A DNA stretch of 64,000 nt, taken from assembly GCA_001724265.1 (NCBI GenBank), contig MEDY01000205.1, positions 1 to 64,000 of the forward strand. The letters are read 5' to 3'. A program made the translations under genes and the position numbers. Of the stretch, positions 479 through 46,009 are shown one piece after another. Under the pieces are notes generated by a model. It was not told the origin of the DNA and searched no databases. It worked only from the letters and a program-made list of their open reading frames with translations. The first letter of the stretch is position 1; each line of letters opens with the position of its first letter. This stretch comes from Rhizaria sp. SCN 62-66 (lineage: Eukaryota).

Positions 479-2197
479 ATGGATTTTTCACAATAGCTTA
501 ATGTTGTAGTTGCACAGCTGCGCTCAGGTGACATCTCTGGTGGCACTCTGGCACTCAAAGACCTCTACACCCCGATCTGGCTCGAGTATACGCAATACAC
601 CGCGCTTGTCAGCGTCCCGGATATCACTCCTCTTCTTGTCTCCGCTCGACAGCTAGGACTAAGCAACAAATCTGACGGCGGCACGCTTGTCAATGCCGCC
701 GCTAGCTTGCTGGCCTTTGCGTCGCGCGCCCCTCAGGGCTGCGAGCTTCTCGCTAGTTGCAAGCATCTGTTCAAGCCTCTCTGCCAGTTGATTTCCATCG
801 ACCAGTCCCACGACACGCTCGACTTCACGCTTCTGATCGCCTCCAACCTTCTGCAGAGCACTTTTACCGCAGAGGTGAACCGTGAGCTCGACGCGCACAA
901 CGCTCGCCCCAAGCTCGTTTCACTCTTAAGTGCCATCGTAACTACACACCTCCCGGCAGACAGCGTAACCACTGCCGCGGCGGCCTCCGCGCTCGCCGCA
1001 ATCGCCGCAGCGGACCGCGCCCAGCCGCCCGCTGCTGCCACCACTGACTCATGCTGCTATTTTTTGACTGACAACGCTTGTGACGACTCTTCTTCTCCGG
1101 CGCTGACGAGTGACTAGCTTGCCTGGGCGACGACTCTTGACCACTTGTGCACGATTTTCACCGCGCAAATCACTGTCAATCCCCGCGCTTATCGCCCCGA
1201 CGAGCTGACCCCGTTGCTGCGAAACGTGCTTCCGCGCTACACGTTCTGTCGCGTTGTCCTGCCCGTTGGTTACTTCCCCGCGCGCTGCATGCTGACACTT
1301 AATGCACTGTGCTGCGCCAACAGCAATGTTTGCGCTGTTGATAGTGCGACCACCGTGTCATCGCCGTCGCCCGCGGCCGAGCTTGCGCTAAGTGCCGAGT
1401 TTGAGTGCGTCCTCTGCCACATCCTCGCGCAGAGGCCGCTGACTAAGAACGCTTTGGAGCTGCTTGCCACCGTGACGCGCTGCTGCGACGCTGCAGTGCT
1501 CGAGAGAGTCTTCACAACTCCACGCTTGGCGCGCCTCGCTGGGTTTTACGACGGATTTCACGAGAAAAAACATCACGAGCTTTTCTTTCAAGCACTGGGA
1601 CAGCTTGTCGAAGCGTCGTCTACGCTGCGTGACCGTGTGTGCGAGGCCAAGATCCTCGAGCGCTGTCTCGCGCACGCCGCGCCGGTTGTTGATGGCAACA
1701 ACAGCAGCGCCAGTGATAAGGATCGCTATTTTCAGACTTGTCTCCTGGCGTCTCAACTAGCTCTATCTGCCGGTACATTCCTGTCGCGTTTGCTGCGGAT
1801 CGCTGACGACAAGCCGGCAATGGCGCGGCGGCAGTTTGATGCAGGCGCAGTGCGGCTGTACACGCGCGCGCTGTCGGTCGTTGCGCAGGGCCACGGCAGC
1901 GCGGCGGGCATCGGATGCGCGCTGGCGGGGCTGCAGCAGCTGATTGAGCAGGGGGACACCGAGCCCGACCCGCGAGGTGCGCGGGCCGCGGAAAGCGCGC
2001 CGCCGCCGCGCAACGCGTTTGCGGGCGCGTTTCTTACCTCAGGGGGGCGGGAGATGCTCGAGACGCTCCACCGGGCCCCGCGCATCAAGGAGGGAGCGAG
2101 CGAGGAGCTGGAGAGCCTGCGCGCGCTGCTGATCAAGATGGCTGTGATCCGCAGCAAGCGGCCGCAGGGCGTGCAGCCGCGCGTGAAAGCTACGTAA
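479..2197 (+). CDS. Divergent importin-alpha-like armadillo-repeat protein (~572 aa; in-frame TAG at 494-496 and 1115-1117 read as sense)
   Basis: ATG 479 (preceded by in-frame TAA at 419), ORF 707..1117 and ORF 1145..2197 are all in one frame, separated only by TAG; ends TAA. Importin-alpha-like segments: LVNAAASLLAFAS (cf. QFEAAWALTNIAS), FFQALGQLVEASSTLRDRV (cf. WALGNIAGDS..CRD.V), LAGLQQLIEQG...NAFAGAFLTSGGREMLETL (cf. LEGLENILK.G...N.....IEE.GGLDKIE.L). Confidence 0.7.
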
Positions 2198-2813
2198 TGG
2201 GGGAACTCAAGAATGAGCTTTCAAATGACACATTGGTCTGAATGATTACTCTGATTCGTACGCTCTGATTCGTACACAAGAGATTAACAATGGAACACAA
2301 TGTATTGCAAAATTAGCTCTGAGAAAATACGTACACCTTCTGGATACACAATTTCAATTCTAAGGATCAACAAGCGTTACTAAATAGGAATAACTGGCGT
2401 GCGAAATATCAGTCCGAAGATTGAATGGTCATCGAGGAGTGAAACTTTCTCTTAAAGGACCAAGCATGTGTAGCGCGGTAGCCATAAAACAAATAAAAAG
2501 CTAGCCATGCTAGTTTTCAACACGCAGATGAACCGTCAGCTCGCAAATGGGATCAACCAATAAGCCAATAGTCTTTTCAGAACAAGCAAAGAGTGCCACA
2601 AAAGAACACACACATTTACAGATTGGGAAGTGCACGGAGGATGCGGAGCCAGTTGGGTCAACAGACACAAATACTTTCGAACCCTCTGTGTAAGTTTTGT
2701 TTGACAGGTTCGAAAAAAAATTTAGAAAAAAATATCTCATAACCACACAATGAAAGAAAAAAAGAACGGTCGGTCACTCGAGTGTGTGAGTCAAGTTGCT
2801 GCCTGCCACGCGC

Positions 2814-5800
2814 TTACTCTTGCCGGTGGTACTCCGGCTTGATGTGGCTTGGCAGCGGCATCGGCGCCCGCAGTGATGTCTGGGCACCGCTCTGCTCGCC
2901 GTTGCCATTGTTGCTGTTGTTGTTATTGTTGTTACTTCTGCCCGCCACAGACGCGGAGGCCTCGCGCTCCTGGTACGCGAGTGCGGACCGCGTGCCCATG
3001 ATCGGCACGCCGCCCGTTGGCGCGGGCAGCGCCGGGATCGCCGGCGCGCGCGACGGGTCGTGCGTCGCAGTATGGGCGCCCGCCGCAGAGCCGTACTGCT
3101 GCGGCGGCTGCGTGTTATACGCGTGCGCCGGCGGGATCGGCGGCGGCGCGGCGCTTGTGCGCGCGCTCGTGCTCGCCAGAGGGGGAAGTGGCGGCGGCGG
3201 GGCGGGCACTGGGGGGCCCGTGTGTGTCGCATACGTGTCCTGCGTCGGCGACGGCGCCGGCGACGGCGCCGGCGACGGCGAAGCATACACAGGCGCATCG
3301 GGGGCGGGGGCAGCGGGAGCGGAAGGAACGGGCGGCGGAGGCGGCATGACAACAGCTGAGGACGGCGCGGGCGGAGCGACAGGAGCGTAATCCGCAGTGT
3401 CGCCGCCGTAGTAGTGGTCATCTTCAGTGCCGTTGCCCACGGTGTACGGAGCCGGGTACGGCGCGGACGGGACCGCGGGGAGGCGCGGCGCCACGGGCTG
3501 CGCTGGCGAGCTCGGCGCGGAGCCGACGGCCTGGTACGCCGTGGCGGCCTGGTACGCCGTGGCGGCCGAGCGGCCGATCGGCGTCATCTCCATCTCAACG
3601 GCGGCGGGCGAGTTGGCGGGAGAGTTGGCGGGGAGCGCGTTCCAGCCAGAGGACGAGCCCTGGAGTGCGGTGGCGCCAAAAGGTGAGCCTGTAAAGCTGT
3701 CGTTGGAGCTGTACGGGTCGCCGCTGCCGCTGCTGCTGTGAGGACCGTAGGGGCCGTGGGGCCCGCTGGCGACGCGGACGGCGACGGCGCCGTCGTTGTC
3801 GTTGTTATTGCCATTGCCGGCGCCGCCGGTGTGCACGGTGTCGAGAGCGAGGTCAGCAGCGACGTGCTTGTGGCCCCTGCCGGCGCCAGAGCCGGCGAAC
3901 ATCTCGATGGCGCTGTAGACCGTCAGGTTGTCGTCAGGAGTCGACTTGGAGGCAGGGCCCTTGGGCTTGCCGCCGCAGAAGCAGTGGGACAGGATGATGA
4001 GCACAAATGCCTTGACGCAGATACTGATCGGCTTAAAGATGAAGATTTCGAGCACGTTCGAAATCGCAGACGCCTGTAGCCACTGCTTGGTGTTGTCATT
4101 CTTCTTCATGTCGAGCTGGACACCATAGACTAAGATCAGCAGCACGAGAACAATGACGTAGATCCAGAGCAGCACGAAGCCAAAGAGACGCACGCCGAGC
4201 GGGAACGACCACGACTCGCGAAACCAAACCATGAACAAATCATAGTCGATGTGCACAAGCAGCCGTAACTGGTTGCGCAACTCGCGCTCGTCACGGACAC
4301 CGCGGGCGTTCTCAGGGATTAACGCATTGCCAGGACCATGAGTCCAGCCACCGGCCTGCGCAATCGAGTGCAACAGAACGCGCTCGTCTTCGTCACTGAT
4401 GACGGGGTTGCGCTTCATGCGGTGCTCGTTGCGCGTCGCGTACTGCGGCTCACTGATGCGGTTCGTGTACTGCAGCTGCGCCACGTGCTCTGCGTAGCCG
4501 TAGATTGCGGACTTGAGACGGCCCTGCTGAGAGCGGCCGAAGAGCAGACTGATGAGAATGCCGACAGGGATAAGGATGGCAGCAGAGATAACAGAGGTGA
4601 CAATCGTACTGAAGCTGACGCTGCCGTCCGCGCTGCCAAAGAACAGCGCGTTGATCATGTAACCTGTGAGCACAAGCACAAAGCCCGCGGTGACGCGGCC
4701 AACCGAGGAGAACGCATTGGTGTCATAGCGTATCAGAACCGAGAGCCAGAGGTGATCGTGCTTAAGCAAGTGGCGCAGGAGATCAATCCAGCGCTCCATG
4801 AAGGCCATCTTCTCCACGCCGTGATCCGGGTTGCGGCGCGCGGTGGACGGCAGCGAGGCTGACGTGTCACCCGTGACGGCGTCCCACTGCTTGCGCTGCG
4901 GGTCGCTCCACTCGCCGTGGTAGTGGCGCAGCGCGCGCGCGTCCATGCGGCGGTCGATCATAGCAGCGACAAAGGCGAAGAACAAATAGGCCACGAACCA
5001 GACGCCGCACGTGATGAGCGGCAGAGGGTGCGCCTTGATGTTGGACCACGTGAGATTCTTGAAGTCGTTCACGTCGAGTGTGTTGAACTTGGGCAGGAAG
5101 TGGTTTAAGTCGAGTCGAACGCGGAACAGAGTCAGGTGCGTGCACTGGCACGTCGTTGTGGTATTGGTGCTCGAGACAGAGACAAGCTTGCAACCCTTAG
5201 TGCTCCACTTGCCGCCGACACCGTTCGCGTTGGCGTCCCACCACTCGCACGTGAAGCTGACGTCTGGCCATGTCGGCTTTGCATGCGGCACTTCAAGTGT
5301 GAAATACTCGTCTTCAGCAGCGGCCAGCATGGCAAACGGCCGTCCGGCGTCGTAATACGCGCCGGAACCGCCGAGATTGAAGCTGATGTGCTCCTGCACA
5401 GGCACCGTGACGCCGTCGCCCACAGCCACGTCGGTCACGTTCGCGAGCGTACGGTTGAACACGGTAAAGGCGAGCAGCGGCGACGACTGCGAGCCGTTGA
5501 GGTAGCTCTCCGTCGCCATGCCGGCGAGGTGGAAGAGCGCCGAGTCCTCGACCATGGCCATGACGACCTGCAGCGCGCTGGCGTTGAGGTGCTGCAGCGA
5601 CGGCGGCAGCGTCACGCGCGCCGTGACAGGCTCGCCCTCGCTCTCGGTCGGCATGCGCGCCTCGATCGCATCGGGCGCGTGCAGAGTCGCGATCGCCTGT
5701 GAAACGACGGAAATCCCGCCGAAGACGAGGGACGTCGCGGCCTGCCCCACCGCCTGTTGCGCGAGCGAACCCATCGCCAGGACGTTCATCTGTTGCGCGA

Positions 5801-8800
5801 TCGCGTTGACCACGCCCGCGGCCTCCTGTTTCAGCGCGAGCAGTTCCGCACCCTCTGTCGTGTTCGAGGCCGCGGAGCCCGCGACGGGGAGCGAGGTGTT
5901 GTGGTTCAGCGCGGCGAGCTCGGCGGCGAAGGCGTCTATGACGACCTGCGTGGCTACGAGCGCCGAGTCCGCTGTGGCCGTGGACATGCCCAGGAAAGCG
6001 TCGCGCGACGCCAGCGACGACGTCTGCACCACAAGCGTGTGCAACGCCTGCGTGCGCGTCGCGCGGTCCAGCTGCGTGCCGTCGGCACATAGCTGCGTGA
6101 GCAGCTCGATGGCGACCTCGGAGTAGCCCGCGTTCTGCGAGAACTGGTTGTGGTCCTGCTCCGTCTCAGCGGAGGAGCCCTCGGAGTCGACGAGGGCGGC
6201 GGCTGCGCGGCGCGCGTCTTGTGAGATCGTGAGCATCTCGGCAACACCGCGGATCGCCTCGAGCAGCCGCGCGCGGAACGCCGTCTTCCCGGCCGCCGTA
6301 ACCGAGACCGCGGCGTCCTCGAGCGCGTCGGTGATGCGCAGCGTGCTTTGGCTCACGGCAGCGATGTCCGACACGGTGACGGCGTCGGTCAGCGTCGCGA
6401 ACAGCGCCTCGATATCCTCCGCGGTCGCGCCGTCGGCGGCGAGTGTGGAGAACAGCTTCGGCACCGCGCCGGTGGTTATCTCGCCCTCAGCAGGATCGGC
6501 AGAGGCGGGCGCCTCGAAGGGCACCTCGACCTCGACACGCGTCTGCGCGCCCCAGATGTCGGTGATGTACACCTCGATCGCGCGCGCGTAGCCGTCGACG
6601 GCGTGGCCCGCGCGCAGCGTCGCCTCTAGCGAGGGCTGCGGCAGCGCCATACCGATTTCGACCCAGTTGCTCTTGACGGCGCCGCGGAGCACGCGCTTAG
6701 ATTCGGCGTACCAGTGGTACGTCAGCGGCAGGTCCTCCACATCGTCTTCCCAGCCGCTGCAGCGCAAAGTGAAGGGCACGTTGGAGCGCGCCTCGGTGAC
6801 GTTGGCCGCGAACACGGGCGCACAGCTGCCGGAGCGTGGGGGTGAGTTGATGCTGAAGGACGCGTAGGAGGAGACGAGCTCTCCTGGCAGCGCGGCAACG
6901 GGAAGGTCCTGAATCTCGGCCTGCGTCGGCAGCACAGTACCGTTGTTGGGGAAGAGCGAGAGGCGGAAGGTGTACGCGACGCCGGGCACGAGCTTCTCAC
7001 CCGATAAGGCGAGAGTGTAAACGAGGCCGCCCGAGCCGTCGCTGGCGGGCGACGCCGCCTGGAAGAGGATCAAACCGGCCTCGTTGAGATTCGCGTTGCG
7101 CGTGTCGCAGCTCCACAGCACGCGCGGTCTGTACCTCTCCGTCGCGGCGGGGTCGCCGGCGGACAGACGCGCCACCACGGCCGTCATCACGATCGGGTTC
7201 TGCTGCAAGATCTGACTGCGCCCGGGGGACGACACGGCGACACTGTACTCCGGATCGTCGATCGTGAGGTCCACGCGCGCGCTTACCGTGACCGGCGCTC
7301 GCTCGCTGCCCTTGCTCACGGTTACTGAGAACAGCATCACCGTGGTTAACACGTCCGCGCTCTCCAGAAACGAGCTCGCGAAGCGCACTTCGACGCTCGA
7401 CAAGTTGGTGAAAGTGCCGTTTGCAAAGCACGGCTGCGCCGCGTTAGACGCGTCCACGCACGACCAGAGGTACGTTAAGCCGTCGTACTGCGAGGTCCCT
7501 CCGGCCGGGTTGACGTCTGGGTCGCGGGAGAGCGCGGCCGAGAGCACGAGTTCCTTGGACGCGCTGTGGACCTTGCCGCCGCCGGAGATGACAGCGCGCA
7601 GCGCGGACGCGGTAACGGTAATAGAGACTTCGTCCGAGTTCGTGTAGGGCGTGTTGCCCGTGACGTCGGTGACGTTGACGCGGAAGACGTAGGGCGCCAC
7701 ACGCGGCGGCATGGCGTACGCGCGCACGCGCAGGGACGCGAGATTGCCAACGAACTCAACGCCCGTCTCGCCGACCTGCGTCCAGATGTAGCTGATGTTC
7801 GTGCCCACGGTCGCGCCCTCGCACAGCGAAACGCGCGAGATGAGCGCGTTGACGAGCACGTTGCGCGTTGGGACCACCGAGAGCGTCTTGCTGCCCGCGA
7901 TCGCGATCTGTGGCAGCTCGGAGTAGGCGCGCGAGACAGTGATGCTCGTCGTCGCGGTCTGCCCGTACCACGACTGCAGCTCGAGCGTGAACTTGACCGT
8001 TCCGCCAGGCGGCAGAATGTCGTTGAGGTCCTCGCCCAGCGGCACCGACAGCGTGGGGATGTAGTACGGGGAGGAATCTGATAAGAAGGGCTTCCCGTCG
8101 TCGCGCAGACCGTAGGTGCGGGTGATGTAGTCCTGCAGCGCGAAGTCGTCGCCGTCAGAGTGCCACGTGTGTGCGAACGCGAGGCCGCCGCTGTTGGCGC
8201 TGGCCACGGACGACAGCGACAGCGCGTCGCACACGCCCAAGCGCGCGGGGCCAGTGACGACGGGCACCGGCGTGGTCATCGTGTCGGGCAGCATAACGAT
8301 CATGTGCGTCTCGGGGAGATACAGTGCCGTCGCGTTCTCGGCGAGTGTGCTGCCTGTGCGGATGACGCCGCCCTTGATGATCACTTCGTCGCCCGCACGC
8401 ACGGTGAAGGACGCGCCGAGCATGATGGTGAACGTGGACGGGGTGGACCACGCGCACTGCACGCCAGAGCCGGGGGAGTGGTTGGAGAACCCGGAGAGAA
8501 CGATGTTACAGTTGGCCTCAGATGCGGGTGTCGTGCTGCGCGGTTGCTGCGTCGGCGCTTCAAACAGCAGTTCGACGCTGCTCATCGACGGTGTGAAGCG
8601 CGCGATGGTGGGCATCGGGAATGGCTGCGCGGGCGGGGCGGGCGCGGTGTATTTCCCGCGCGCGCCGCCGTAGAAGAGGTACTTGTTCGCGACCGTGAAA
8701 GCGTCCGTGCCGCCGCTGAACGGGAAGTTCCGGTTCAGCAGCAAATGGTGGCCGTTCCAGTCGTCAGACGCGTCGAGCGGTGCCTCAAGCGTCCAGTAGC

Positions 8801-11800
8801 CTCCCATAGTCATGTAGCGCTGTGGCAGGCCGGCGCCGGTGGGAAGCACGGCGAACAAGTGACCCACGAGTGCCGAAGGAGTCATTTGCATCGCGAATTG
8901 TGACTCGGTGGCATCCTCCGCCTCGAGATCCAGCAGCGCACCCTGCCACTCCACCGCCCGGTTGGCCTCGAGAGACTCGATCACGGGGTCGCCGCGCGCG
9001 ATGCTGTTGCCGGCGCCGTAGGCCAACTTAGCCCCCGCGAGAGACGCGCTGGTGGCCGTAGACGCGCCGGCGAGCTGTGCGATGCCGAACGTCGTCGTGT
9101 TGATGCTGAACATGTCGTTGGCCGCAGCGACGCCGTCGGCGCTTGCGTCGGGCAACACGCTAAAGCGCAGCTGCGGACGGAGATCAGTCTGCCAAACCTT
9201 GCCGTTGGTGCCGCCGACGAGTGTGTTGCGTGAGCGGATGGACGTGAAGGCGACAAATTGGTCGTTAGCGACGTTTTCTGACGGGGATGCCCACGCTAAA
9301 TGCTCGCGTTCGCGGTTAAAACTGCCCGCGATGGGCACCGTCTCAATAATGACGACGAGGCTGACGTGAGGCGCATCCATGACCGCAAACGTACCGCTGA
9401 AAGTCAGTGTCAGCGTGGTGCCGTCGGTGGCCCAGGAGGTAGGTGTGGTATCCATCGAAGTTGACGCCGTCGCCGCGACGGAATACAGGTCATTGACCCA
9501 GTCGGACACGAAGGCAAGCCGCGCGTTGACACGGAACATGGCGCCAAAGTACGCATCCACGGGCAGAGCAAAGTAGAGCGTCAGGGAGCGCAGTTGCAGT
9601 CCGTCTTCCAGCCCGACGCTGGTTAGCAGCTCGCGCGGCACCTCCGTCGCAAGCCACGCCTTGTCGGTGTCGTGCGGGTAAAACGGCGGCAGCACGTCGA
9701 GCGCGCCCGCTGACGGGTAATACACCGAGCGCGAGAGCATAACGGGCGTTATGCGGCGGAACAAGTCCACCGACGCGCCTTGTGCAGTGAGGCCGCCGTA
9801 GCACACGATGGCGGAGCCCGCGGTGGGGAGCACGTCGCAGGAGTGGCCATAGCGCGAGCCCATGGTGTATGGCAGAGTGGCAAAGTTGGGTGCGGTGACC
9901 GTGCCGGTGGATTTGACTGAAGAGCCCGCGCGGAGCGTCCATGTCTCGAACTCGGCGTTAAAAACCCAAATGTCGTCCAGTGCGCCCGCAGCGCCGACCC
10001 CGCCGATGACCCAGAGCTCGGTGCCGACGGTCAACATCTGCGTGCGCGCGCGCGCCGAAGGGCAAAAGTCCTTGAGCGACTTGGTGGTGTTTAGAGGGGA
10101 AGAGAGTGAGATGAAGTTGGGGACTGTGACAGCGCAGCCGATGTACTCCCATGTGATGGAACCCGAGTCACGTGTGCGGAAACGCCAAATGTCGGCCAAA
10201 TATTGCAGGCCGTCCACGCTGGGCTTCATGCCGCCGTACAAGTACACGTACTCGACTCCGGAGATTGTAATCGCGGCCATCGAGTGAAACGCGCGCGCAC
10301 CGGGGGAACCTGTGGGGTACACTCCGTCCGAGCGGCGCGCGTGCCCTGTCATGTTGTCAACATCCACGGAGCCGACGAGCGTGGGCGGGATGCGCGCGGT
10401 GGTGCGGGCAGGCGCAGGGGTCAAGATCTCCGGCTGCGGCGCCACGCTCTGCTGCGAGGGCCACAGCCGCCACAGCCGGTCGTAGACGTCGCGCGCCATC
10501 ATCAACTCGCCGGTGTAGTAGATACCGCCGTGCAGGAACAGGCGGTCCACCGTGGGCGCGAAGACAAGCGCGGCACCGTAGTAGCTGCCGATCGAGACCG
10601 CGGTGCCCGTGAAGACGGATGTACTGTCGGCGCCGTTGGGCGGCTGGTGTACGATGACGGCCGCGCGCGTCGCGTAGCTCACAGCGGCGATCGTGCCCGC
10701 AAGAAAATGGCGGTTGATGCTCTCCGCGCCGCCGCCGCCAAAGAGCACGGTGTCGTTCTGCGGGAAACCGAGCATGCCGGCCGCGATCGAGGACAGTCCG
10801 TGGGCAACGGCGTTGGCGGTGTGGATACGCGACGCAGTGAGGATGGACGAGCCGTTGCTCTGTACAATTGCAGCCGCGCGCAGCGGCGAGCACAGCGGAT
10901 CCGTCGCGTCGGTCTGACACGCGCAGGGCGCCGAGATGGACACGTTGTTCGGGAGCGCACCGTTGCGGCAGGGGATCCCGCGAATGGCCGAGGGGGGCGC
11001 GTAGGTGTACCGCGTGAGCTCGCAGTGCTGGCCAAAATACCCGGCGGGGCAGCGGCAGGCGTAGAACGACGCGCCCTGACCGGCATCGAGCGCGCCGGTG
11101 CAGTTGTTGACGAGGTCGCGGCAGAGCTGGCACGTGCCGCCGTTGGCGCACGGGTTGTTGCGGCAGCTGTCGGTGCCGAGCGAGATCGGCATATCGTGCA
11201 CAGTGTACGACTGTGTGGCAGCGAACGGGTAGATCTCGGTTGCCATCGGCGGCTCGCTCAGCTGCCGCAGACCGGTGGTGCGGACCATCAGCGAGGCGGG
11301 GCGCGCGTAACCAGTGTCGCGGGAGGCCAAAGACGAAGGAATGAACGTCATTTGACCGCCGAGGATGGGAGAGCGCACGAAGTTGCTCCACGAAAACGCC
11401 GCGGGCTCCCTCGTGTTGTTGAGCTCGTCGATCCAAATCCACGCCGCGACGGCCGTGCCTTCTTCGTGTTCGGGCGCCCACTGGTAGTCATTTGACTGCC
11501 AGAAGATGTCGTGCAGCTGCCGCGCAAAGACCGCGAACGTCGACTGCAGCGGCGCGCTGAGTCCGTCCTCGCGGAGGCCGACGCCGTCGCTGATATACAA
11601 CAACCCGTCGGCCGCGGCGGCCATCGATGCGGCGGCGCGCGCGCCGGGCCACTGCAGCCGCGAGGGCGCGCCGGCGGTTTCGCGGCGGTCGGCGCGGTGT
11701 GCGGAGACCGTGGTCGCCCAGGTCGTGGGGCCGGAAAGATAGGCCCACTGGTTCCTGAAGAAGTCGAAGACCCAGAGGTCGGCCATGTAGGCAGGGCGAG

Positions 11801-32080: not shown

Positions 32081-32461
32081 ACTATACTCAAACAAAAGCG
32101 CAAGACACGGACGAGGCAAAAGGTTGGGCGCAAGGGCCGCAAGGTTTGGGGTGGGGCCGCGAGAGGCTTTGTGACTGAGAGCGGGCACAAGCAGGGTGCC
32201 GTTAGCGAGTGGTGGAGAAGCGAGTTTGAGTCGAAAGTAAGTAACATGTTGTTTTGATGAGGTATAATTATACGAAAATGACAGTCGCTTACTTTTATAA
32301 ATATTTCAATTTTCGACTTTTCCCACGACGGATTACTGCGCGTTCTAAAGCCTTAACCCTTGGACTCTTTCCCCGCCCCACCGCAGACCAGGCAAGTCCA
32401 CACAACCCTTTCTTCGATTCCCCGCGCCCTCACATCGCTTCCCCCGCCGCGCGCGCTCGAC

Positions 32462-34528
32462 ATGCAGCGCTTTCCCGCCGCTGCAGCTCCTCCCACGGCT
32501 GTCCCGCCCCCTGGCACAGCGATGGCCGACGGCACATCGGGCTCCCAGCAGCAGCAGCAGCAGTCTCAACAACAGCCGTTTGATAAGCGGCTGGTTGCCG
32601 CTAATGCCCGCGCAGAGCTGGAGGCTATCTTGGCCAAGGACGCGTTCGGCGGACGCGATGAGATGCACGTTTGGGAGAAGGCGCTCGACAAGACATGGGA
32701 TAAGATCACCGTACGTCAGTCTATCAGTCGCAATTCTATAGCGACACACGTTATTGGACACTGTCTATGTTATGACTTTTCAATTACAAAACTCGTAGAT
32801 TCTGCATCAAACTAAGATAAAACTTGACTAAAGTACACCAATCGCTATAATCTCACCAATTACGTTTTATTTTGCTTCTTTATGTATATTATACCTTTCT
32901 AACTGTCTTAACAACAGGACTCGCTCGCCGCGCGCGCCGACCCAGCAACTTTGCTATCTCTCGCGCGCGCCCGCAAGCAGGCGCTCGACGCGCGCTGCCA
33001 CACCGCCGCAGCCGAGCGTGACATGATCGTCCAAAAGGGTCTTTTGCGCAACTTGGTCGTCATCATGGACTGGAGCGCTTCCAGCGACACCACGGACTAC
33101 CGCCCTTCTCGCCGCGCTGTCGTCAAAGCCGCCGTCGACACTCTGATCCGTGAGTTTTTCGACCAAAACCCCGTCTCGAGCCTCGCACTTATCGCCGCCT
33201 ATAACGTCACCGCTGTGCGGGTGTCCGCGCTCTCAGGCTCCCCGGGCGTCCACACCGCCGCACTCGACAACCCCGAAACGGACTCCTTCCACGGCGGCGA
33301 CTTCTCGCTGCGGAACGCGCTGCACCTCGCGCTCGGGGCACTCCATGCCGTGCCGAGCCACTGCACGCGCGAAGTGCTGCTCTGCGCGTCCGCGCTGTTC
33401 ACCACCGACGCGGACGACATCGAGGACTCGATCGCGGCGCTCGTGCGGGCGCGCGTCCGCGTGTCGATCGTCGGCGCCGGGGCCGCTGTACACGTGTACT
33501 CGCGGGTCGCCGTCGCCACAGGCGGGACGTACACCGTCGCGCTGAACGCGGAGCACTACCGGGCGGAGATCATGCGGCGGGTGGAGCCGTCAGCAGTGCT
33601 CGACACATCACTCCTCCCCCCCTTACCCAACCTTGGCTCGGGCTCTGGCTCTGTGGCTGCGGCGGCGGCCGCGGGGGCGGTGGCGGGAAGGCAATGGGTG
33701 CAAATGGGGTTCCCAGAACGCACAACCGCGAGTTCCGAGCGGCTTTTGTTCTGCGCGTGCCACCTGAAGCCCGTCACCGCTGCCCACGAGTGCCCCCGCT
33801 GCTCTACTATGGTGTGCGAACTCCCCTTCGAGTGCCCCGTGTGCCGTCTCTCGCTGGCCTCAGCGCCGCACTTGGCGCGCTCGTACCACCATTTGTACCC
33901 GTTGCCGGTGTTTGTTGACGTGTCGCACGCTGTTTCGCGCACGAACTCGCTCAAAGCCGCCGCCAAAGCTGCCGCCACTTCCGCCGCTAAGTCCGCCGCC
34001 GCCGCCACCGCCGCCGCTGCCGCCGCCGCGACCGCATCAGGTAGTAATGGCAGTGGCGTTACTGCAGCCGCGGTTTCTTCTTCTGCTGCAGGGGGGCTGA
34101 GGCAGCGCACGGTGCGGGGAATGGGGGCCGCCGTCTGCTTTGGCTGCCAACGGCTGGTGACGCCCGGGCTAGGAGAACTCGTGACCGCGTGTCCCGCGTG
34201 CGGCGGCGTGTTTTGCGCGGCGTGCGACGAGTTTGCGCACGCTGCGCTGCACAACTGCCCGGCGTGCTTGGCTAAGGCTGAGCGGGCGCCGGCATCTGAC
34301 ACAGAGGATGCCGCCGACGACGACGACGATGATGATGATGGAGATGGCAATGACGAGAGTGAGCGTAAGAGCAATACCGACTCCAGGACGAGTGCGAATG
34401 TCAACGTCAGTGCCAAAGCCAGCGCCGCTGCGGGTGCGAGTACGAGTGCGGGGGCGGGGGCTGCTATGGGTGATGGGGACGAGGAAGTTAAGCCGGAGCC
34501 CAAGGTGAAGATTGAGGGTGCAAAGTGA
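32462..34528 (+). CDS. GTF2H2: TFIIH subunit p44/Ssl1 (exons 32462-32710, 32918-34528; alternative ATG at 32522)
   Basis: WE....KTW motif in exon 1. vWA domain GLLRNLVVIMDWS...DYRPSR...EFFDQNPVS. C4 zinc finger CPRC..VCELP.ECPVC.L.L.SAPHLARSYHHLYP. C-terminal CFGC...C..C...FC..CD.F.H..LHNCP. Phase-0 intron 32711-32917 (GTACGT...ctaac...CAG). Ends TGA. Confidence 0.95.
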
Positions 34529-35011
34529 GAATGCGATGCAGTCAATTCTGAGGATGACTCCAAATGAGTATTTCTCTTGTCGTTATTCTCAGTGTAAAGT
34601 GGGTAGATCTTGTCATCAAAATTGAATGCATAATGAACATGTAGTTTTTAGCTCAAGGCGCAAAGGTACTCTATGTGAGCTGTCGTTATAATTCTATGAA
34701 TGAAACGTTCTTTTGATGACGATGGCGTTGATATATGTTGATATATTTAAAGTTTGTCTTTCTTCCCCCACTTTCTGCTCTGACCAACCAATGCGAGCAC
34801 TGTGACAATACACAATAACAACAACAACAACAACAACAACCGTTTCTTCGAACACAAGATGGAAAACAGTAATCACCAGTCAGCACAAGCCGCATGAGCG
34901 CATTCTTACGTATTCAAAGGAGTTTCGAATATATCGACTATGTATTGTTGATGATGATCTAGATAACCTTCTTTGTTCAGCCGACCAGCTTCTGGATCCA
35001 ATGCGGCGCAC

Positions 35012-35726
35012 TCAGTGAGATTCGGCCTTCGCCAGCGCCCGCGCCGCGGCCCTAGCCGCCGTGGCCGCGGCGACGCACTGAGTGACTGTGAGGGCAGAGG
35101 GCGGGAAAGTGACTGTGAGCTCCTCTGCAGCCGTCCCTAACACCCGCGCACTGGTGGTAGTAGACGGCTCCGGTGACTGAAGGCCACCAGAGTCAGCGTC
35201 GTCAGAGGAGGTCGAGTTGGGGTCAGAGCGGGAAGTGAAAAGAGAGATGGGGACGGCGGCGTGTGAGCCTCGCAGGGTGCTGTAGGCCGCTCGGGGGACC
35301 AGTGCGAAGTCGAACGAGATCGGTGGCACTGTACCGGGGACGGATGGAAAGAGGTCCACGTTGGCGGTTGCCGGCGCGGTGGTGAAACCAACCGCCTGTG
35401 AGGAGAGGTCGAGCAAGAGAGCGACGATGAAAGTGAAAGGTGTGTGTGTGACTTGAAGAATAAGTGTGTGGTGGGTATAAGCACTTTAAAGCAATACAGC
35501 GATGAGATATGCGGGCGAGAAAACGTACGGTGTCTGTTTTGGTAGAGTTGATAAGTTCAGGCAGGCTCTGGACGACAGCACGGCGGACAATATTGTCAAC
35601 CTCTGCCATATCTTCCGAGGTCCACCATGAAGGCAGGCTGAGGCGGAACGAGGTCAGCAGCACTGCACCGCCGCCGGCGCCGACGGGGAGCATGTGCGTC
35701 GACATACGATGAAATAAATCTTCCAT
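35012..35726 (-). CDS. Small protein (~193 aa; exons 35726-35529, 35395-35012), weak resemblance to SLX4IP/UPF0492
   Basis: Phase-0 intron 35528-35396 (GTACGT...ctcctcaCAG) joins ORFs 35223..35726 and 35012..35416. SWWTSEDMAEVDNIVRRAV recalls SLX4IP SWFSEQKKEEVCLLLKETI. Ends TGA. The gene structure is well supported; the family call is tentative. Confidence 0.6.
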
Positions 35727-36214
35727 GCGTAAAAATAAATCTAATTGCGCTACTTTTATACGTGTTGTCTGTGTTTTGTAGCGTCATTTGAACATTATGG
35801 TGAAGGGTCTGAGAGCGGGCACAATCGAGCCGTTGGAGCCCGACGGCCAACGTCTTCATCTTTCAACTCATAAAACTCGCTAGAACCTCCGTCAAATTAA
35901 AACTTACCGGGTTTTCAAAGAAAAGTTGTTGTTTCTTACATTGACTCTTTATTATACTGTACAAAACCTTTGTTTGCCCTTTATTTGCGCTCTTTAAGTA
36001 CTCGACAGTCGCACGCACATAACGGATCGAAATTGAGAAACCTTGATAGCCCCCCACACCCCACACTCGCACTCCCTTGCGCATGCACAGCGTTCGTTCC
36101 GCGACCCACGAACTGCTCGACTCCCCTGCGGCATATTCTGTTTCTGCACGCACACGTAACTCCCTCCCGGGCCCTCTCGACTCCCGACAGCCTTCGTCTC
36201 TGCCGCCACCGGCC

Positions 36215-39200
36215 ATGTCCGCCCCCGTCTTCCCAGCGCAGCAGAACGCGCTCGGTCACAACACACCGGGTGGCAGTCTTGCCGCTGCGGCAGTTGCGGA
36301 CGTTATCTCGACCCTTCAGGCTTCTTTATCCGAGCGCGACGCTGAGCTGAACGAGACAGCAGACGCCTTGGCTTCGGCTGAGGAGGGTCTCGCGGCCGCG
36401 CGCGCCGAAGCCGAGGCCGCCTCCGCCGCCGCCGCCGACCTGCAAACCCAGATGGCGGCCGCGTACGACGCGTTGCAGGACGCCGATGACAGCGCCGCGG
36501 CTCTCAAATCCCGCGCAGAGGCTGCTGAAGCGCGTGTGAACGATCTCGAGTCTTCCGCGACTGTGACGGCTGCGACGCTGGACGCTTTGCAGTCCCGCGC
36601 CGCCGCCGCCGACACGCGCGCCGCCGCCGCCGAGGCGCGCTCGGCCGCAACCGAGCATCAAACCGCCTCTGCAGTGGCCTCCGCAGTGGCCGCCGCGAGG
36701 GATGATGAGCGGGAGCGTTCTCGCACCGCAGCCGCCGCCGCTGCCGCTGCGACCGCCGCCGCCAAGGCTGAGGCTGCCGCTGCTAAGGCCGAGGCTGCGG
36801 AGGCCGTCGCCGTCGCCCGCCGCGAGGCAGCGCGCGCCGCCGCCGCCGAGACCGCCGCCGCCGCCGCCACGGCCGCCGCAGCCGCTATTGAGCGCGCTGC
36901 CGCGGATAAGTCCGCCCGCGCGGCCGCTGCTGTCACCGCCGCCGAGGCGTCCGCCGCCGCCGCCAAGGCCGAGGCCGCCGCCGCCGTCCGCGCGGCGACT
37001 GATGACGCCACGACCGCGGTCCGCCGCGCGCGCGCCGAGGCCGAAGCCGCGTTAAGTGAAGCCGCGGCGGCGCGGCGCGTAGGCGACGACCAGGCGGCTA
37101 AACTTACGCGCACCGAGGCCGATGTTGCGAGGCTTTCTGACCAGTTGGCCGCGGCCCGCAACGCGCTGGCGGCCGCAGGGGAGCGTGCTGAGGGAGCTGA
37201 GGCCGCTGCTGCGCGCGCGCGGGCTGCCGCGGCCGCCGCCGCCGACGACGCCGCCGCCGCTGACCGCAAGCGCGCCGCTGCCGAGGCCGCTGTGGCCGCC
37301 GCGAGGCAGAGCGCTGCGGAGGCTCGCTGTGCCGCCGAGGCCGCGGCCAGCGATCGTGATGCCGCTGCGCGGGAGCGGGAAACGGCTGCCGCGGCCGCTG
37401 AGCTGGCGGGGCATGAGGCCCGGGACTGGCAGGCGCGGCTCCGGGGAAGTTAGGCCGCGGCCGCCGCTGCGTTGGACGCCGAGGCCTGCAAGCACGCCGC
37501 CGAGCTGGCCGCCGCAGAAGCCCACGCCGACCGAGCGCGTGCCGAGGCTGAGGCGAGGGCTGAGACCGGCATCGCCGCCGCTGAGGCCGCCGCGGCTCGG
37601 GACCAAGCTGCTCTCTTGGCCGAAGCTGAGGCGCGCGTCACTGCCGCCAAACAGGCCACGGCGGCCGTGGAGAGTCTCCTCGCCGCCGCACAGGCGGAGA
37701 CGGCAGCCATGCGCGCTGAAGTGCTCACAGCGCAGGCCCGCGCCGCCGCTGCGGGCGAGACGGCCGCCGCGGCGGGCGCCGAGGCGCGCGCTCTGGCGGC
37801 AGAGCTCGGAGTCGCCCGTGACGCCCGCGCCGGCGCCGAGGCCCGCGAACAGCTCGCTTTGACTGCGCTTGACACCGCGCGCGCCGACGCCACGGCCGCG
37901 GGGGCGCAGGCGCGGGCTGAGTTAGCTGCGGCGACTGCGGCTGCTGGCCAGGAGCAGCGTGCCTCAGCCGCGCGCGCGCACGCTGCCGTCGAGCACGCGT
38001 TACTCCGCGCGCGCACCGCCGAAGAGGAAGCCGCCGCGCTCAAGTCCCGGCTGCAGCGGGCCGCGGAGGACGCCCGCGAGCGCGCCGCCGCCGCCGAAGC
38101 CGCGGTTCGCGCTGAGCTCGCTGCCCGAGAGCGGGCGTGCGCAGAGGAGTTGCGCGCCGCTGTCGCTGACGCCCGGCGTGAGGGCGAGGCAGCCGCGGCG
38201 CGCGCGCGGGCCGAGGCCGCGGCGGAGGGCGAGCGTGCGCTGACGGCCGCGCGGCGGCTGAGGGAGGAAGACGCGGCGCGGCATGCTAACGAGCTGGCTC
38301 TCGCGCGCGCCGCTGCCGCCGCTGCGGAGGCGAACGCGCGCGCGACCGGGGAGCGCGAGGCCGCCGCGGCGCGTCTGCGGGGTGACGGGGCCCTCTCTGC
38401 GGCGGGCGCGGCACACGCGCGCGAAATCACGGACCTCAGGCGTGCGCAACAAGAGGAAACGCGCGGGCTGCGAGACGCGTTGGCGCGCGCTGAGGCCGCC
38501 GCGGACGCCCGTGCCGATGCTGCCAAGAGGGCTGCGCAGGAGGCGGCGGCGGCGGAGATCTCGCGTATTATCGCGCAGGTCACTGCAGCTCAGCGCGCGC
38601 GGGCGGCTGAGCTACGCGCGGCCGCGTCGGCGGACATCGGCGCCGCCGCCGCCCTCGCCGCCGAGGCTGAGGCGCGCGCGCGGGCCGCCGCGGCCGCTGG
38701 GAACGGGCGGGTTGCTGCTGCTGAAGCTCGGGCTGCCGCGGCCGAGGCCCGCGCTGTCGCGGCTGAGGCCCGCGCTGCCGCGGTTGCGGCGGAGGCGGAG
38801 CGCGCGGCGGGCGAATCTCTGGCGGCGTTTGCGCTGGCGGACAGGGCGGGGCGCGCGGCCGAGGCGCTGGCGGGAGAAGTCGAGCGGCTTGAAGCTGCTG
38901 CTGCGGCGGCGGCGGCTCGGGAGCGCGGCGGCGCGCTAAGGGCCGAGGCGGCGGCACAATGCGTGCAGCGCAAGGGGCAGAGCATGCTGCTGGGCGCGGC
39001 CGAGTCCGCCTTTGCTGCTGCCACAGCCGCTACAGCTGCTACCACGGCTGTTGACACTCTGCACTCTGACGATGAGGCAACTAGTCATGGCCCCTGTGAC
39101 CGTGATGCTGCTGTGGCGTCAGTGGCTCCGTGTTAGAGTGGTAGAAGCTTCGTTTTCAACAATAACTACATCAACAGCACCAACAGCAGCAGCAGCAACA

Positions 39201-40984
39201 ACAACAACAGCAGCAGCAACAACAACAACAAAACTCACTTTGCTGAGGCTAATATGACAGCATCGACTGTGAATGACAAGTCTGGGTCGCATTGCTGCAG
39301 CGATTGCAGTGAGGCGCGGACTTTCATCGCCACAGCGTTTGACCGCAACATCTAGTCCAGCAATATGATCAACAAGCCTGCTGCTGCTGCTGCTGCTGCA
39401 TCATCTGTGCGCAGCTTCGTTGTTGCGCCCCAGTATAAGAACACAGCTCCTGTGCCCATTGTTAGATTTGACTACCCGCCTCTCGATAATGATGATGGGG
39501 ATGACGCGACTGATGAGAACGGTCCAGTGTCGGCGATCTCTGCGACAGCGCTGGCTTCGAAGGCGGATTTTGCGGCATTGGCTGCAACCGAGTCCGCACG
39601 CGCACTGTGTTCCAGGCCGTTGCCTTCGCGCCCTGGCAAGCCGCGTGGGCTGGGCTTGAGTACAGTCAACGGAGGCGATTCGGCTGCAGTCATCAGAGGC
39701 AGCTCGCATTCAGTCAACAAAGAGAACTCGACTCCAGTCAGTAGAGGCGGCTTATAGACTGTCAGTGCAAGCAAGGCCGCCACTCCGGCATCCCACAGGA
39801 CGGCTGCGCAGGCGGGCGACGCCACTGCCGTCCTGAGAGCGGGTTATGCCGATGCTGCTCGGCACAACGCGTGGCCCGCTCAGGATGCACGCGCGCTGCG
39901 GACGAGAAATGCGGACGCGAGGGCACGTGGTTCTCAAGCCGCAGACGGCAACAACCACGCGACTGCTGTTGTGGCTGACCCTCACGACATCCGTGAACCG
40001 TATGCGCCGCAGTCGTTGTGGACGTCGCGGCCACTCATGGCGTCAACGGAAAATGTGGGTTCACAGCACATCGCCGTCGGTAGCGCTCTGCTAGCGGCGC
40101 CTCCGGCACTTCCCCAGCGTCCCAACCGCGGCATTGCGTTGCTGAGTGACTCTAGCACGAGCAACACACGCGCTAACAGCGAGAATAGCGCGGCCAGCAA
40201 CAGGGCGGGCGCTGTTGCGAGCGCAATGACCGCATTGTTCAGTCAAAACAGCCGCAGTCACGTCCCTAGCGCCAGCGTCACGAGCAGCAGCAGCAGCAGC
40301 AGCAGCAGCGACGGCGACGGCGACGGCGACGGCGATAAAGTTCACGTTCTCGATGACATTGATAAGCGCAATGGCGCTCCCCACGACGATTGTGCTAGGA
40401 ATAATAATCGTGGCTCTAGCACTTATAGCGGAGGCTATGCGGTGGGGCGGCGAGTGCGGTTCGTGCGGCCCGGCTCCCCGGTTGATTTTGCGGCGGACAC
40501 TGCACTGCAGCGGCGCGGCGCCGAGGCGTTGGCGCGGTCAATCTCGCTCTTACAGGCCATTGCGGACACTGCGGTCGCTAAAGCGGCGAGGGCCGCGACT
40601 GACAACGGCGCAGAGACTGCTGTTGACGCAGAGGCTGATGACGAGGAGGCTGAGGACGAGGAGGGTGATTATGGCGCTGATGCATGCGATGGAGTTGTGG
40701 TTGAAAAGAGCAGTTTGTATGACAGCATCCAGCCGGCAAAGGCGTACGTTTCTGACCACGAAGATGATGATTATGGCTACGAGGACCGTGCTCATTATCA
40801 AACAACTGCGACCAATCTGGAGGCATTCAGTGGTGACGATGATCGCGCTCAGTATGCTGCGGAGCGGCTCGATTACATGCAGGCTGGCTTGGCTGCGAAC
40901 ACTGGTGACGCTGGGATTGATTTGGTGTACGAGAACAGCAATGACAAAGAGATTGCTGGTCCGTTTTCTTCTCTTTTCACGTAA
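36215..40984 (+). CDS. Very long Ala/Glu/Arg-rich coiled-coil protein with low-complexity C-terminus (~1,589 aa; four in-frame TAG read as sense)
   Basis: ORFs 36077..37453, 37472..39136, 39365..39757 and 39971..40984 are all in the same frame. The only interruptions are TAG at 37451, 39134, 39353 and 39755. Ends TAA, after which composition becomes AT-rich. Start chosen at gccATG 36215 (36083 also possible). Confidence 0.72.
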
Positions 40985-41318: not shown

Positions 41319-41882
41319 TTAATGTGGTCGATCAACAATTTTATTGATGTCATGAAGGTTCTCTTCAAAACAATCCGCAGTCGGGAGCAGCTCAGCAAAC
41401 TCCGGAACGCGGGCTGTCAGAAGATGTAGCACACGCACGATCATGGTTACTTGTTTTACTAGATATTTTGTCGCAAAGCCTCCGAAGGACTCAAGAACGC
41501 GCCCTATTTGAGGATGTGTGAAGGCACGGGTAAACATTGTGTCATCGAAGAAAGTTAGGCAATTCCACAGCTTTCGAAGAGGCCTTGTCTCTGAGAGGTT
41601 GACAAGCGGCACAAACTCGTCGCTGGTCATAAAGTTCACACGGTCTCTGGGGCGCAGCGCGTTGTCGACGTAGTCTTGGCCGCTGTCTTTGGCACCGGTT
41701 GCCGGCGATGATTCGTTTCTCGCAACGGCCGTGGCTGCCGGCAGTATCATCGTCGTCGTCACGTTCATAGCCACTACCGGTGTCGTAATGGGTTTGGCGG
41801 TTGTTATCGCTAATGTCGTCGGTGATGCTGTCGCAGCAGAGTAGAAAAAACATCGTTGAACAGGCGTAATTGCGAATGTCAC
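41319..41882 (-). other. Uncertain ORF or gene fragment (Thr-rich stretch followed by a helical-looking segment)
   Basis: 187 open codons with protein-like composition, ending TAA. No convincing start. A possible acceptor (ttttttctactctgctgcgacAG at ~41828) has no credible upstream exon. Confidence 0.3.
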
Positions 41883-42302
41883 TGCAGTAACTCATGCTCG
41901 GTGGGAAACGCTGGATGACGCTGCGCCACAGCGGGACGAACAAGAGCAAAAAATTAGTCATAGTAGGCAATAGTGTGGTTATTTTTACTGAGCTGCACTC
42001 TGAAGCGCCCTTACCACGTTCGTACATATCACACCAAGTGACTTATAGATGTAAACACATGAGTTAGGAGATATGTTTAGGAGCCTTTCCTATATATCTC
42101 TCTGTTACATGGCACTTCAGGACTCGTATAACCGAAGTAGATAAGACTAAGAGCCTTATAAACGGTAAGAGTTGTGTTAATGTTGCTGAACATGTGATGC
42201 AATATTCCTTACGCCTGCATGAGATTACTTCTGTTCGTGAAGTGAGAAAACATTAGTGGGGCGAACAGTCGTGTTAGAAAGACAAAAAAATGCACAGCAC
42301 CA

Positions 42303-42810: not shown

Positions 42811-43315
42811 AACAGAGCACAAGGTGGAAATATTGCTATCAACAAGTATGCTGTCAAAATGCAAGGCAAGGACGCAATGAACCAACGAATATTCTTGTTT
42901 TGGCCAGCTGAAGCACTTTGACTTGTGACCACGGTGAACATGGGGAAGTGACGGAAAAGAAAATCATAGTGTATTAACACTGAGACCAGGTGAGAGGGTA
43001 GAAACGGCTTTCTTTCAAAGACAACAGCAAGCTCACAACATCCGTTATTTTGTTTGCGGCTAACATAACCGAACTATACTCTATTCTGGTTATTCAACAC
43101 TTCTACTATTGCAGTCAGCTCGCTTGGTAACACTCTCATTTTTCAGTCTCTAATTCCATCACTTCACCCTTCAACTCTCCTCCTCCCTGCGTCTGCTATT
43201 TGTTCAACCCTACATCACAGAGTTCTCCGTCATCGAAATAACCACACAACACATCTACGCTACGGGTTATCCCATTGATCAAGTACTGCGATACCTTGTT
43301 TGAGCCTGACTAGTG

Positions 43316-46009
43316 ATGTCTGCGAGCCCCCGCAAGAAAGCGGCTCCGTCGTCCAGCGGCGGTCCCAACGTCGAGGCCGAAGCCAAGGCCGCAGGCGCCG
43401 CTGCAGCGCGGAAGATCAAGATGAAGCCCGTCCCCACGGAGGACGACCTTGCCAAGGCGCGCCTGCAGCTTGTACGCGCCCAAGAGCAGAGCAAACACCT
43501 CGCGCGTCTTGTGCAAGAGAACCTCGCTTTGAAGGACATTTCAAGCGAAATCGGCGCCGCGCTGCACACTCAGGTCGCCACCCAGACCTCTATCCTGGCC
43601 GACCTGGACTCCGAGCTTACATCGACTGACAGCGAGGTCGTCTCCACGCAGCAGCACATCGAGGCGCTCATGCGCCAGCGCGAGAACATGCACGCAGCGC
43701 ACGAGACCCGCATGTCATCCCGCCGCGAGCGCCACGCCCAGGCGATCGCGGGTCTTCTGTCTGATCTCAACGATCAACGCGCGCTCTTTGCCGCTAACGC
43801 GGACCTGCGCGCGGAGAAGAAGGCGCTGTACGAGGCGCTCGATGTCGCATCCGCCGAGGCTGCGCGCGCGCGGCACTCGCACCACGTGACGGTCAGCGAC
43901 CGTGAGCACCTGTGCTTGCTCGAGAAGGCGACGCTGCGCCGCGGCATGCTGTCGAAGCTCGCGTCCACCAAGCTTGGGCTGCTGGGCAAGGTCGGCCACC
44001 AGCTGCACACCACGACGCGCCGCGTCACGCTGGAGCACCAGCAGGCGGCGCTCGAGGTCGCCTACCAGTCCGCCGTCGTGGAGAGGGACACGGCGCACTG
44101 CGACCGCGCAGAGACTCGTCTGAGGGCGTTACGGCGCGCGGCTGAGCTCGACCTGCAGGCGCTGGCGATGGCCAAGGACCGCGAGGCTGCGGTGCAGCGA
44201 AGGCTCGCCAAGGAGGCCGTTGTTCTGGCGGCTCTGCAGCGCATGGCTGTAACGCACGACCTAAAAAGCTATAGTGCCTATAAGAAGAACGGTAAGAAGC
44301 TTCCCGCATCCCAGCAACAACAGCAGCAGCGCAGTGCAAATGCGAGCAATGAGCGCAGCGGCGTTAGTAGCGCGAATGGCGATGCGAGTGCGAGCGGCGG
44401 CGGTGGCGCTGGTGGTGGTGTTTCAGATCAGATGTGGCGTGACGTTGGCGAAAGCTTGAATCTCTCGCAGTCAGTCATCAGCAACAACAACAACACCAAT
44501 AGCAGTAACAACCATGGCGACAGCGCTCACGGTCACACTGCCGCCCAGAGTCAGCTGCTTGCGCCGAGTCAATCTCAGACGCTCACAGTCACTCTCGGCC
44601 CCACCACAAACGATTCCTCGACTGCTGACCACCACCATCACTACAACAACAACAACAGCAACAGCAATAGCAATACGGACAGCAGCGGTGACTATTCTGC
44701 CGGCTCACAGTCATTCCGTGGTCTCACAGTCACTGCCAGCAGCGGCAGTAATCCCTCCCATAACAACAACAACAGCAACAAAAACAGTAGTGTTGCGAAC
44801 AACATCAACACTGCGGCGGTGGTCCCCATCAGTGCACGCCGTGTCTCTGCCACTTCCTACGGCTCCGGCGCGGTTGCGACCGCAGGCGTGTTCTCGAAGG
44901 CGAAACTAGCGCGGTGTCCGTACGGGTCGGACGGTGCGCGCCGAATCAACGCCTCGGTCGCCGCAAATACCAACCTGCACCCTCTCGCATCTGTCAACTC
45001 TTACAACAACAATAACAACGCTGCTGTCCAGAACACGATGAATGCTGCTGCGAGCCTGAACGCCGCGAGTGCTAATTCTGCAATGCGCATCGGTAGCGCG
45101 ACCATCGCAGCGACGCCCGCCACCGCAGCCGCAGCCGCTGCCGCCTCTGCTTCCACTGCCATCACCGGCGGCGGCGGCGCAGGACGCGGCAGCAACAGCA
45201 GCACGAGCGGGCTAGCCGGGGTCACGCGCGCTCTCCAGGCCGAGACCGTGACCGTGGCGGGGGAGCTCCGCGCGCTGCTGGAGGCGACGGCGCAGGCGCG
45301 CGGCACGGCGGCGCGGGCGCACGAGGGCGCTCAGAGGCTGCTGCGGCTGCAGTAGGACTCGCTCCGGCTGCTCGAGCTGGCGATGGGTGACGCGTACGCG
45401 CAAGGAGCCGCCGCCGCCGCAGCAGCAGCAGCGGCAGCGGCGCAGACTGGGGGCGATGCTGGGGGCAGCAGCAGGGTCAATGGGGGGGCAGCTGCGGCTC
45501 TCGGGGGACTGGACGGGGCCATTCAACGGGCGGCCGCGGGCGAGCCCGTTTGGCCGCACTCGCACACACACGGACTCGTTTCCACTGCGCGCAACCACAA
45601 CAACAGCAACAACAACGGCGATGACACTCCGAACAACAACAATCTCAGCAACAGCAGTAGTGGTCGCCGGAGTGGTGGCGGTGATAGCCGCGATGCTGAG
45701 GCGGAGGGCGAGGAGTTCGAGGCTGAGCTTGACCGTGCCGTCGCGGCCCCGTTTGACCTCTCTTGGCCCGCGCGCGCCGCCCTCCTGGCCTCCACTGGCG
45801 AAGCCGCCGGAACCGACAGCGGGAGCAGCGATGCCACGACGATGGCGATTATGAGTGAGCGTTCTCTATTGCCCTGGCCGCTCAAACGCGGCGTCCCACC
45901 TAAGCTCTCGATGGTGCGGTTCGGAGACGCCCTGGCGTTGCTGGCGCTACTGTACCATAAGCTGGACGCGACACCGGCGCCCGCGCCGATCAAACGCTCT
46001 GTCGTCTAA
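43316..46009 (+). CDS. CFAP157: Cilia- and flagella-associated protein 157-like coiled-coil protein (~897 aa; in-frame TAG at 45353-45355 read as sense)
   Basis: LEKATLRRGMLSKLASTK...QLHTTTRRVTLEHQQAALEVAYQS matches the CFAP157 core as I recall it (EK.RL+KEM..KI..TK....QL..TT+RTI.EN.Q...EL.YQS). ORF 45383..46009 continues in the same frame across one TAG lying inside an amphipathic helix (RLLRLQ*DSLRLLELAM). Ends TAA. Confidence 0.75.

Follow-up and report, generated by a model that had tools for sequence, protein, structure and literature searches.

Seven in-frame TAG codons in a 64-kb stretch of eukaryotic DNA suggest possible translation of UAG alongside UAA and UGA as stops

We analyzed a continuous stretch of 64,000 nucleotides (positions 1 to 64,000 of contig MEDY01000205.1 in assembly GCA_001724265.1, deposited as Rhizaria sp. 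SCN 62-66), called the window throughout, in which four protein-coding genes, g1 to g4, carry between them seven in-frame TAG codons and end in TAA. The pattern suggests that UAG may be translated in this organism. Gene g1 (326-2197, forward strand) encodes a helical protein that belongs to no Pfam family and contains a TAG at 1115-1117, the point at which a 136-amino-acid (aa) open reading frame (ORF) called on three contigs stops. Gene g2 (28979-32083, reverse strand) encodes a low-complexity protein with a sub-threshold match to XLF, and its TAG is located at 29756-29758. Four TAGs, at 37451-37453, 39134-39136, 39353-39355 and 39755-39757, are found in g3 (36083-40984, forward strand), which encodes an Ala-rich coiled coil, and one, at 45353-45355, in g4 (43316-46009, forward strand), whose product combines a coiled coil with low-complexity sequence. 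Two allelic records of 679 aa, differing at one of the 679 residues, stop at this last TAG. In public protein sets g1 and g4 are present as split pieces (P0111-P0113, P0116 and P0117), cut at the TAGs by gene callers that apply the standard code.

When g1 to g4 are read together in frame, their 4,130 codons include seven TAG, no TAA and no TGA, and the remaining two frames contain 62 TAA, 53 TAG and 185 TGA. As the off-frame density of TAA plus TGA amounts to about 0.03 per codon, the roughly 2,000 codons 3' of the TAGs are not open by chance. A codon-usage model was built from seven TAG-free genes, and for all 11 segments that flank the seven TAGs or lie between them, the gene frame was the best of the three sense-strand frames, with scores of +0.09 to +0.89 bits per codon. 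For the segment 28982-29755, which lies 3' of the TAG in g2, an antisense frame scored slightly higher than the gene frame. With the same model, six intergenic stretches scored between -0.43 and -0.94 in all frames, and intergenic DNA is AT-rich (GC 0.34-0.45). The claim of a first-pass annotation of this DNA that a coding-like frame continues beyond the TAGs is therefore borne out at seven sites. Its statement that neither TAA nor TGA interrupts a confident gene also holds, as none was encountered in the 17,787 codons of all gene models. Equally, the bases that follow the seven TAGs (C, C, G, A, T, A and G) reveal no common read-through context, as had been stated.

Thirteen gene ends could be read in the window. 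Nine of them are TAA (2197, 2814, 19467, 20709, 28979, 40984, 46009, 46459 and 48665), four are TGA (22389, 28194, 34528 and 35012) and none is TAG, and AT-rich sequence follows all 13. If the four TAG-containing genes are left aside, five TAA and four TGA ends remain, which confirms the earlier tally. A TGA at 53299 was excluded from the count; its ORF and the one that follows overlap in a long ATG repeat. The probability of finding no TAG among 13 gene ends would be 0.12, 0.055 or 0.010 if TAG ended 15%, 20% or 30% of the genes, respectively.

The first-pass annotation had listed eight in-frame TAGs and had stated that none of them lay at an AT-rich intron. All eight positions are indeed TAG, but the one at 494 is probably the end of an intron, leaving seven codons. 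Spliceosomal introns, which had been missed, are present in the window; they measure 133-207 nt, are AT-rich (GC about 0.33-0.42) and have 5' GTAYGY and 3' YAG or AAG motifs. On the forward strand they occupy 18898-19059 (162 nt, GC 0.38, ending in a TAG at 19057), 26174-26336 (163 nt, GC 0.33, ending in a TAG at 26334), 26668-26827, 27188-27339 and 32711-32917, and one is located at 35396-35528 on the reverse strand. The gene at 24489-28194 consists of four exons, and Ssl1 has an upstream exon at 32360-32710. Overall, the genome is intron-poor, with a tight intron type and GC-rich exons. The 100 nt that precede the TAG at 494 have a GC content of 0.39, and exactly 168 nt upstream a GTATGT adjoins the ATG at 326-328, so that a probable forward-strand intron of 168 nt (329-496) can be written as ATG / GTATGT...cacaaTAG / CTT, whose removal yields an in-frame M-L-N-V-V... 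Because its 5' motif, length class and low GC match the two certain TAG-ending introns, the TAG at 494 is counted as a probable 3' splice site of g1 and not as a codon. For the seven other TAGs the absence of an intron was upheld: neither GTAYGY nor GTRAGT occurs within 500 nt upstream, and the upstream 100 nt have a GC content of 0.53-0.82.

Introns also account for the apparent TAG ends of two ORFs read with the standard code. The ORF 24450-26336 stops at an intron end (26334), and the ORF 26221-26712 stops at a TAG inside an intron (26710). On the reverse strand, at 46453-46461, a GTACGC, which is the 5' splice motif of this organism, directly follows the TAA that ends a gene for a protein of 584 aa; this could be due to an intron in the 3' untranslated region or to a missed last exon.

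Contigs from other assemblies were compared with the window, and among them a second strain, about 1% divergent, is present. The X2 and X3 DNA contigs, which share identical statistics and were treated as one data set, cover the TAG at 29756 (contig 29176-30129) as well as those at 39353 and 39755 (contig 39239-40272) with 0 differences. X2 belongs to the study from which the window probably comes. PolyA-RNA contigs (X5) from a 2025 metatranscriptome of a separate study span two of the six sites compared, 1115 lying outside the stretch compared: the contig 38866-39157 crosses the TAG at 39134 with 0 differences, and the contig 37243-37642 crosses the TAG at 37451 with one difference, the position of which is not listed. 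These RNA and DNA comparisons are between contigs and not raw reads, and minority edited forms could be hidden in them. The TAGs are not assembly slips, since they recur in other DNA assemblies, in polyA-RNA contigs and in protein records; at least some of them are common to strains and present in RNA-derived contigs.

Homologues were sought for g1 and g4. A word-based search with g1 gave no match, and a full HMMER search recovered nothing beyond the two pieces of g1 itself and two weak matches (E 5e-4 and 7e-4). A homologue of 477 aa is 31% identical to g1 over 189 residues and has a gap at the TAG site. The only part of g1 with detectable homologues lies after the TAG at 1115, and the 477-aa homologue possesses about 280 residues before this conserved part, like g1 when it is read through. 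The search with g4 returned only its own 679-aa piece, and no paralogous copies of the TAG neighbourhoods, which could show the ancestral codon, were found in the window. An AlphaFold2 model of g1, calculated from a 5-row alignment, reached a mean pLDDT of 47.5 and was too poor for use. The earlier preference for Gln as the inserted residue had been drawn from sequence context; it is not sustained by these alignments, in which no TAG stands in a conserved column and the g1 homologue spanning the site is gapped there.

For g2, homology to XLF with a C-terminal tail following the TAG was considered and set aside as a lead only, as the Pfam match to the XLF N-terminal family, which covers residues 481-507 of P0002, falls below the threshold (E 0.097, 13.4 bits) and sequence searches of the PDB gave nothing relevant. 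The C-terminal tail of g2 is basic. Presumably, it resembles the Ku-binding end of XLF, and were this borne out, the TAG would be followed, 258 codons further on, by a functional motif.

Translation of UAG as a sense codon, with UAA and UGA kept as stops, is the best explanation of these data, and on the basis of this single 64-kb stretch we consider it probable, with a good deal of room for doubt. It is favoured because no gene ends in TAG, because of the number of genes that are hit, and because no other disabling change accompanies the TAGs. The code proposed in the first-pass annotation is thus partly supported: it fits the data better than any rival tested, but the TAGs are confined to low-complexity parts of four weakly constrained genes, a feature that had escaped notice and that is unlike the UAG-only codes described so far.

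Several observations weigh against a translated UAG. An even distribution would place 5.4 TAGs in the 13,657 codons of the nine remaining genes, which contain none (P about 0.005), and TAG is found in just four of 13 genes and not widespread as in the described UAG-only codes. All seven TAGs are located in poorly conserved, low-complexity stretches, and none aligns to a conserved residue in the homologue searches of g1 and g4. With seven occurrences in 17,787 codons, TAG makes up about 0.04% of codons and, judged from a TTG/CTG ratio of 0.28, is about 15 times rarer than would be expected for a settled synonym of CAG. The restriction to TAG is in itself weaker evidence than it appears, because TAG is the outcome of 60-63% of one-step nonsense changes at this codon usage, and seven TAGs out of seven would then have a probability of about 0.03. 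The counts behind the nonsense share and the TTG/CTG ratio include about 400 mis-framed codons from one gene; the codon totals have been corrected. Among the 16 strain differences listed for g2 to g4, ten change an amino acid, alike before and after the TAGs, and in this small listed set nothing points to purifying selection that acts on the parts 3' of the TAGs in particular. Finally, the window contains no tRNA gene according to ARAGORN and Rfam; searches with Rfam gave no rRNA and no member of any other family either. The TAG-containing genes evolve fast, and their GC content at third codon positions (GC3) is 0.67-0.75 vs. 0.73-0.81 in most others.

Among the alternatives, a leaky stop survives best, and we regard it as unlikely. 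UAG would formally remain a stop but terminate weakly, being read through by near-cognate tRNAs with no dedicated tRNA(CUA) involved. Read-through would be frequent enough for TAG to be borne in dispensable, disordered parts of a few genes, and TAG would be avoided at gene ends. Such an arrangement would agree with the very low TAG frequency (7 in 17,787 codons), with the presence of TAGs in only four of 13 genes, all of low complexity and with lower GC3, and with the lack of TAG at gene ends, as a bad terminator predicts. However, g3 would need four successive read-through events, and its yield would be very low unless each of them were efficient; nor do the sequences 3' of the TAGs share a read-through context. 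The leaky stop is the main variant of the favoured explanation and is inseparable from full reassignment on the present data.

If the standard code applied, the seven TAGs would be true premature stops, arising from recent nonsense mutations or in pseudogenes under way, with too little time elapsed for the frames to close. The fast evolution and poor conservation of the four genes, the rank of TAG as the commonest outcome of one-step nonsense changes, and the large conserved genes that lack TAG are all in line with this possibility. Nevertheless, we consider it distinctly improbable, as it would mean that four of 13 neighbouring genes had been disabled, g3 by four stops, and yet no TAA, TGA or frameshift is found in 4,130 codons. 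Codon bias is undiminished 3' of the TAGs, the TAGs are common to strains about 1% apart, the conserved part of g1 would be lost, and the lack of TAG among 13 terminators would be left unexplained.

A-to-I editing of UAG to UGG occurs in sexual-stage transcripts of some filamentous fungi, and a comparable conversion of UAG to a sense codon before translation would, as in the fungal cases, affect TAG alone and a subset of genes only. This explanation is very unlikely: the polyA-RNA contig across 39134 shows no difference from the DNA, although minority edited reads may be hidden in contigs and the one RNA difference near 37451 is not listed by position. Furthermore, the closest fungal Ssl1 found is only 32% identical to that of the window, so the organism is no close relative of sequenced fungi, and four affected genes in 13 would be far above the fungal frequency. 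An assembly or sequencing artefact, for which no supporting evidence was found, is hardly credible, as the sites are seen again in other assemblies and, from a different study, in RNA contigs, and errors would not yield TAG alone.

Were UAG indeed translated, a tRNA would read it, and this tRNA would have a CUA anticodon because UAA must stay unread; eRF1, the gene for which lies outside the window, would recognise UAG poorly. Decoding of UAG may be recent or inefficient, because TAG makes up so few codons and is confined to poorly conserved, low-complexity stretches in weakly codon-optimised genes. TAG would then persist only at places where slow synthesis of the protein, or its occasional truncation, is of little consequence, and its sparseness and patchiness fit a young or inefficient reassignment. 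More specifically, and tentatively, the capture of UAG might be in an early and still inefficient phase, in which the codon has gone from gene ends and is translated but is kept in disordered stretches of weakly constrained genes, its use being restricted since decoding would be slow or would partly compete with termination. If true, such an early capture would be an instance of the 'ambiguous intermediate' postulated by models of code change, a stage that already lies behind the UAG-only codes described so far.

Nuclear codes that give UAG and UAA separate meanings have been described from a few lineages only (PMC5304391, PMC11687900, PMC10553269), and they show that the two codons are mechanistically separable. 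In the fornicate Iotanema spirale, UAG encodes Gln and UAA and UGA are stops (Panek et al. 2017, PMC5304391). Among its genes, 126 contain 204 in-frame UAG codons in total; these make up about 8% of Gln codons, and many stand in conserved Gln columns. An internal UAG is present in 348 of 730 contigs (PMC5304391). The window resembles Iotanema in that TAG is found in frame only and never at a gene end and in that most genes end in UAA (104 UAA and 15 UGA there; nine TAA and four TGA here), but it differs in having only seven TAGs, which are spread over four of 13 genes and do not align with any conserved column, and in coming from a GC-rich organism. In the rhizarian exLh (Sainouroidea), UAG is reported to encode Leu, with UAA (56) and UGA (15) as stops; 384 UAG codons were counted in 71 genes, proteasome genes use UAG for Leu more than any other codon, and its depletion in highly expressed (ribosomal-protein) genes was read by the authors as less efficient decoding (PMC5304391). 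Again UAG is sense and UAA and UGA are stops, and the depletion in exLh parallels the patchy use of TAG in the window, although UAG is abundant there and TAG amounts to about 0.04% of codons here. The sequence comparisons gave no link between the present organism and Rhizaria.

For phyllopharyngean ciliates, the published description assigns UAG to Leu (three TARA metagenome-assembled genomes) or to Gln (Hartmannula sinica and Trochilia petrani) (McGowan et al. 2024, PMC11687900), and it reports that 78-91% of genes have an internal UAG and that two genomes encode suppressor tRNA(CUA) (PMC11687900). Like the putative reassignment in the window, theirs concerns UAG only, came to light in metagenome assemblies and leaves UAA as the preferred stop, but their use of UAG is widespread whereas TAG is sparse here. 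The G+C content of 62% and the introns of 133-207 nt in the window are, we take it, not ciliate-like. One oligohymenophorean ciliate is also described as using UAA and UAG for different amino acids. The context-dependent codes of Condylostoma, karyorelicts and Blastocrithidia are similar in that a stop codon can be translated inside genes, but there the same codon also ends genes, whereas TAG ends none of the 13 genes in the window.

In the literature searched, with supplementary tables outside the search, a UAG-only nuclear reassignment was found in Iotanema, the rhizarian exLh and phyllopharyngean ciliates only, and no such code was found for a wastewater eukaryote or a GC-rich non-ciliate one. 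If confirmed, the present case would be an addition to the known UAG-only codes, set apart by its very low and patchy use of TAG. It would add to the sample one more independent separation of UAG from UAA, from an organism that is GC-rich, free-living, not a ciliate and repeatedly met in wastewater reactors, and the sparseness of its TAGs could reveal how a reassignment begins.

The window has a G+C content of 62%, and its proteins are clearly eukaryotic, among them the Ssl1/p44 subunit of TFIIH (E 1e-47). The same DNA turns up in metagenomes of bioreactors, wastewater and activated sludge from several studies, including the polyA metatranscriptome. A JGI metagenome contig (L001) corresponds to window positions 31443-36334, with 4,892 bases at 99.96%, and contains no TAG site. 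An earlier scan of metagenomes with Ssl1 gave no match; a scan with a profile of three Ssl1 sequences gave 80 loci, among which L001 alone is from the same organism and none is the contig of a close relative. The best named matches of Ssl1, from land plants, Mamiellophyceae, Klebsormidium, the stramenopile Phaeothamnion and fungi, are 32-41% identical, a metagenome protein is 48% identical, and a search of a protein atlas returned broad eukaryote clusters only. As Ssl1 is just 32-41% identical to its nearest named proteins, the source appears to be an uncultured eukaryote, and no sequenced close relative was found.

Other parts of the window show features of their own. At 2814-17240 on the reverse strand, a protein of 4,808 aa has REJ and GPS domains in addition to several Kelch propellers, a predicted architecture that would resemble, in a protist, that of the polycystin-1 receptor. 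The forward-strand gene at 17593-19467, in place of which the first-pass ORF list gives an antisense shadow (17497-18954), encodes a signal-like N-terminus, a Pro/Ala-rich repeat with dozens of N-G-T and N-A-T sequons and a hydrophobic C-terminus, and its product is probably a heavily glycosylated surface protein. An ORF of 3,557 aa contains a ubiquitin hydrolase (UCH) domain. On the reverse strand, at 53299-53590, this ORF overlaps the start of an ORF of 1,554 aa in a different frame across about 35 ATG repeats; the two ORFs may belong to a single gene of about 5,100 aa in which a frameshift has occurred or the length of the repeat is wrong, or they may be two genes that abut. The 2.3 kb between 41000 and 43300 have a lower GC content (0.43-0.44) and only weak ORFs, such as a minus-strand frame of 190 codons (41319-41891) that ends in TAA, and it is here that strain differences and non-triplet indels are densest.

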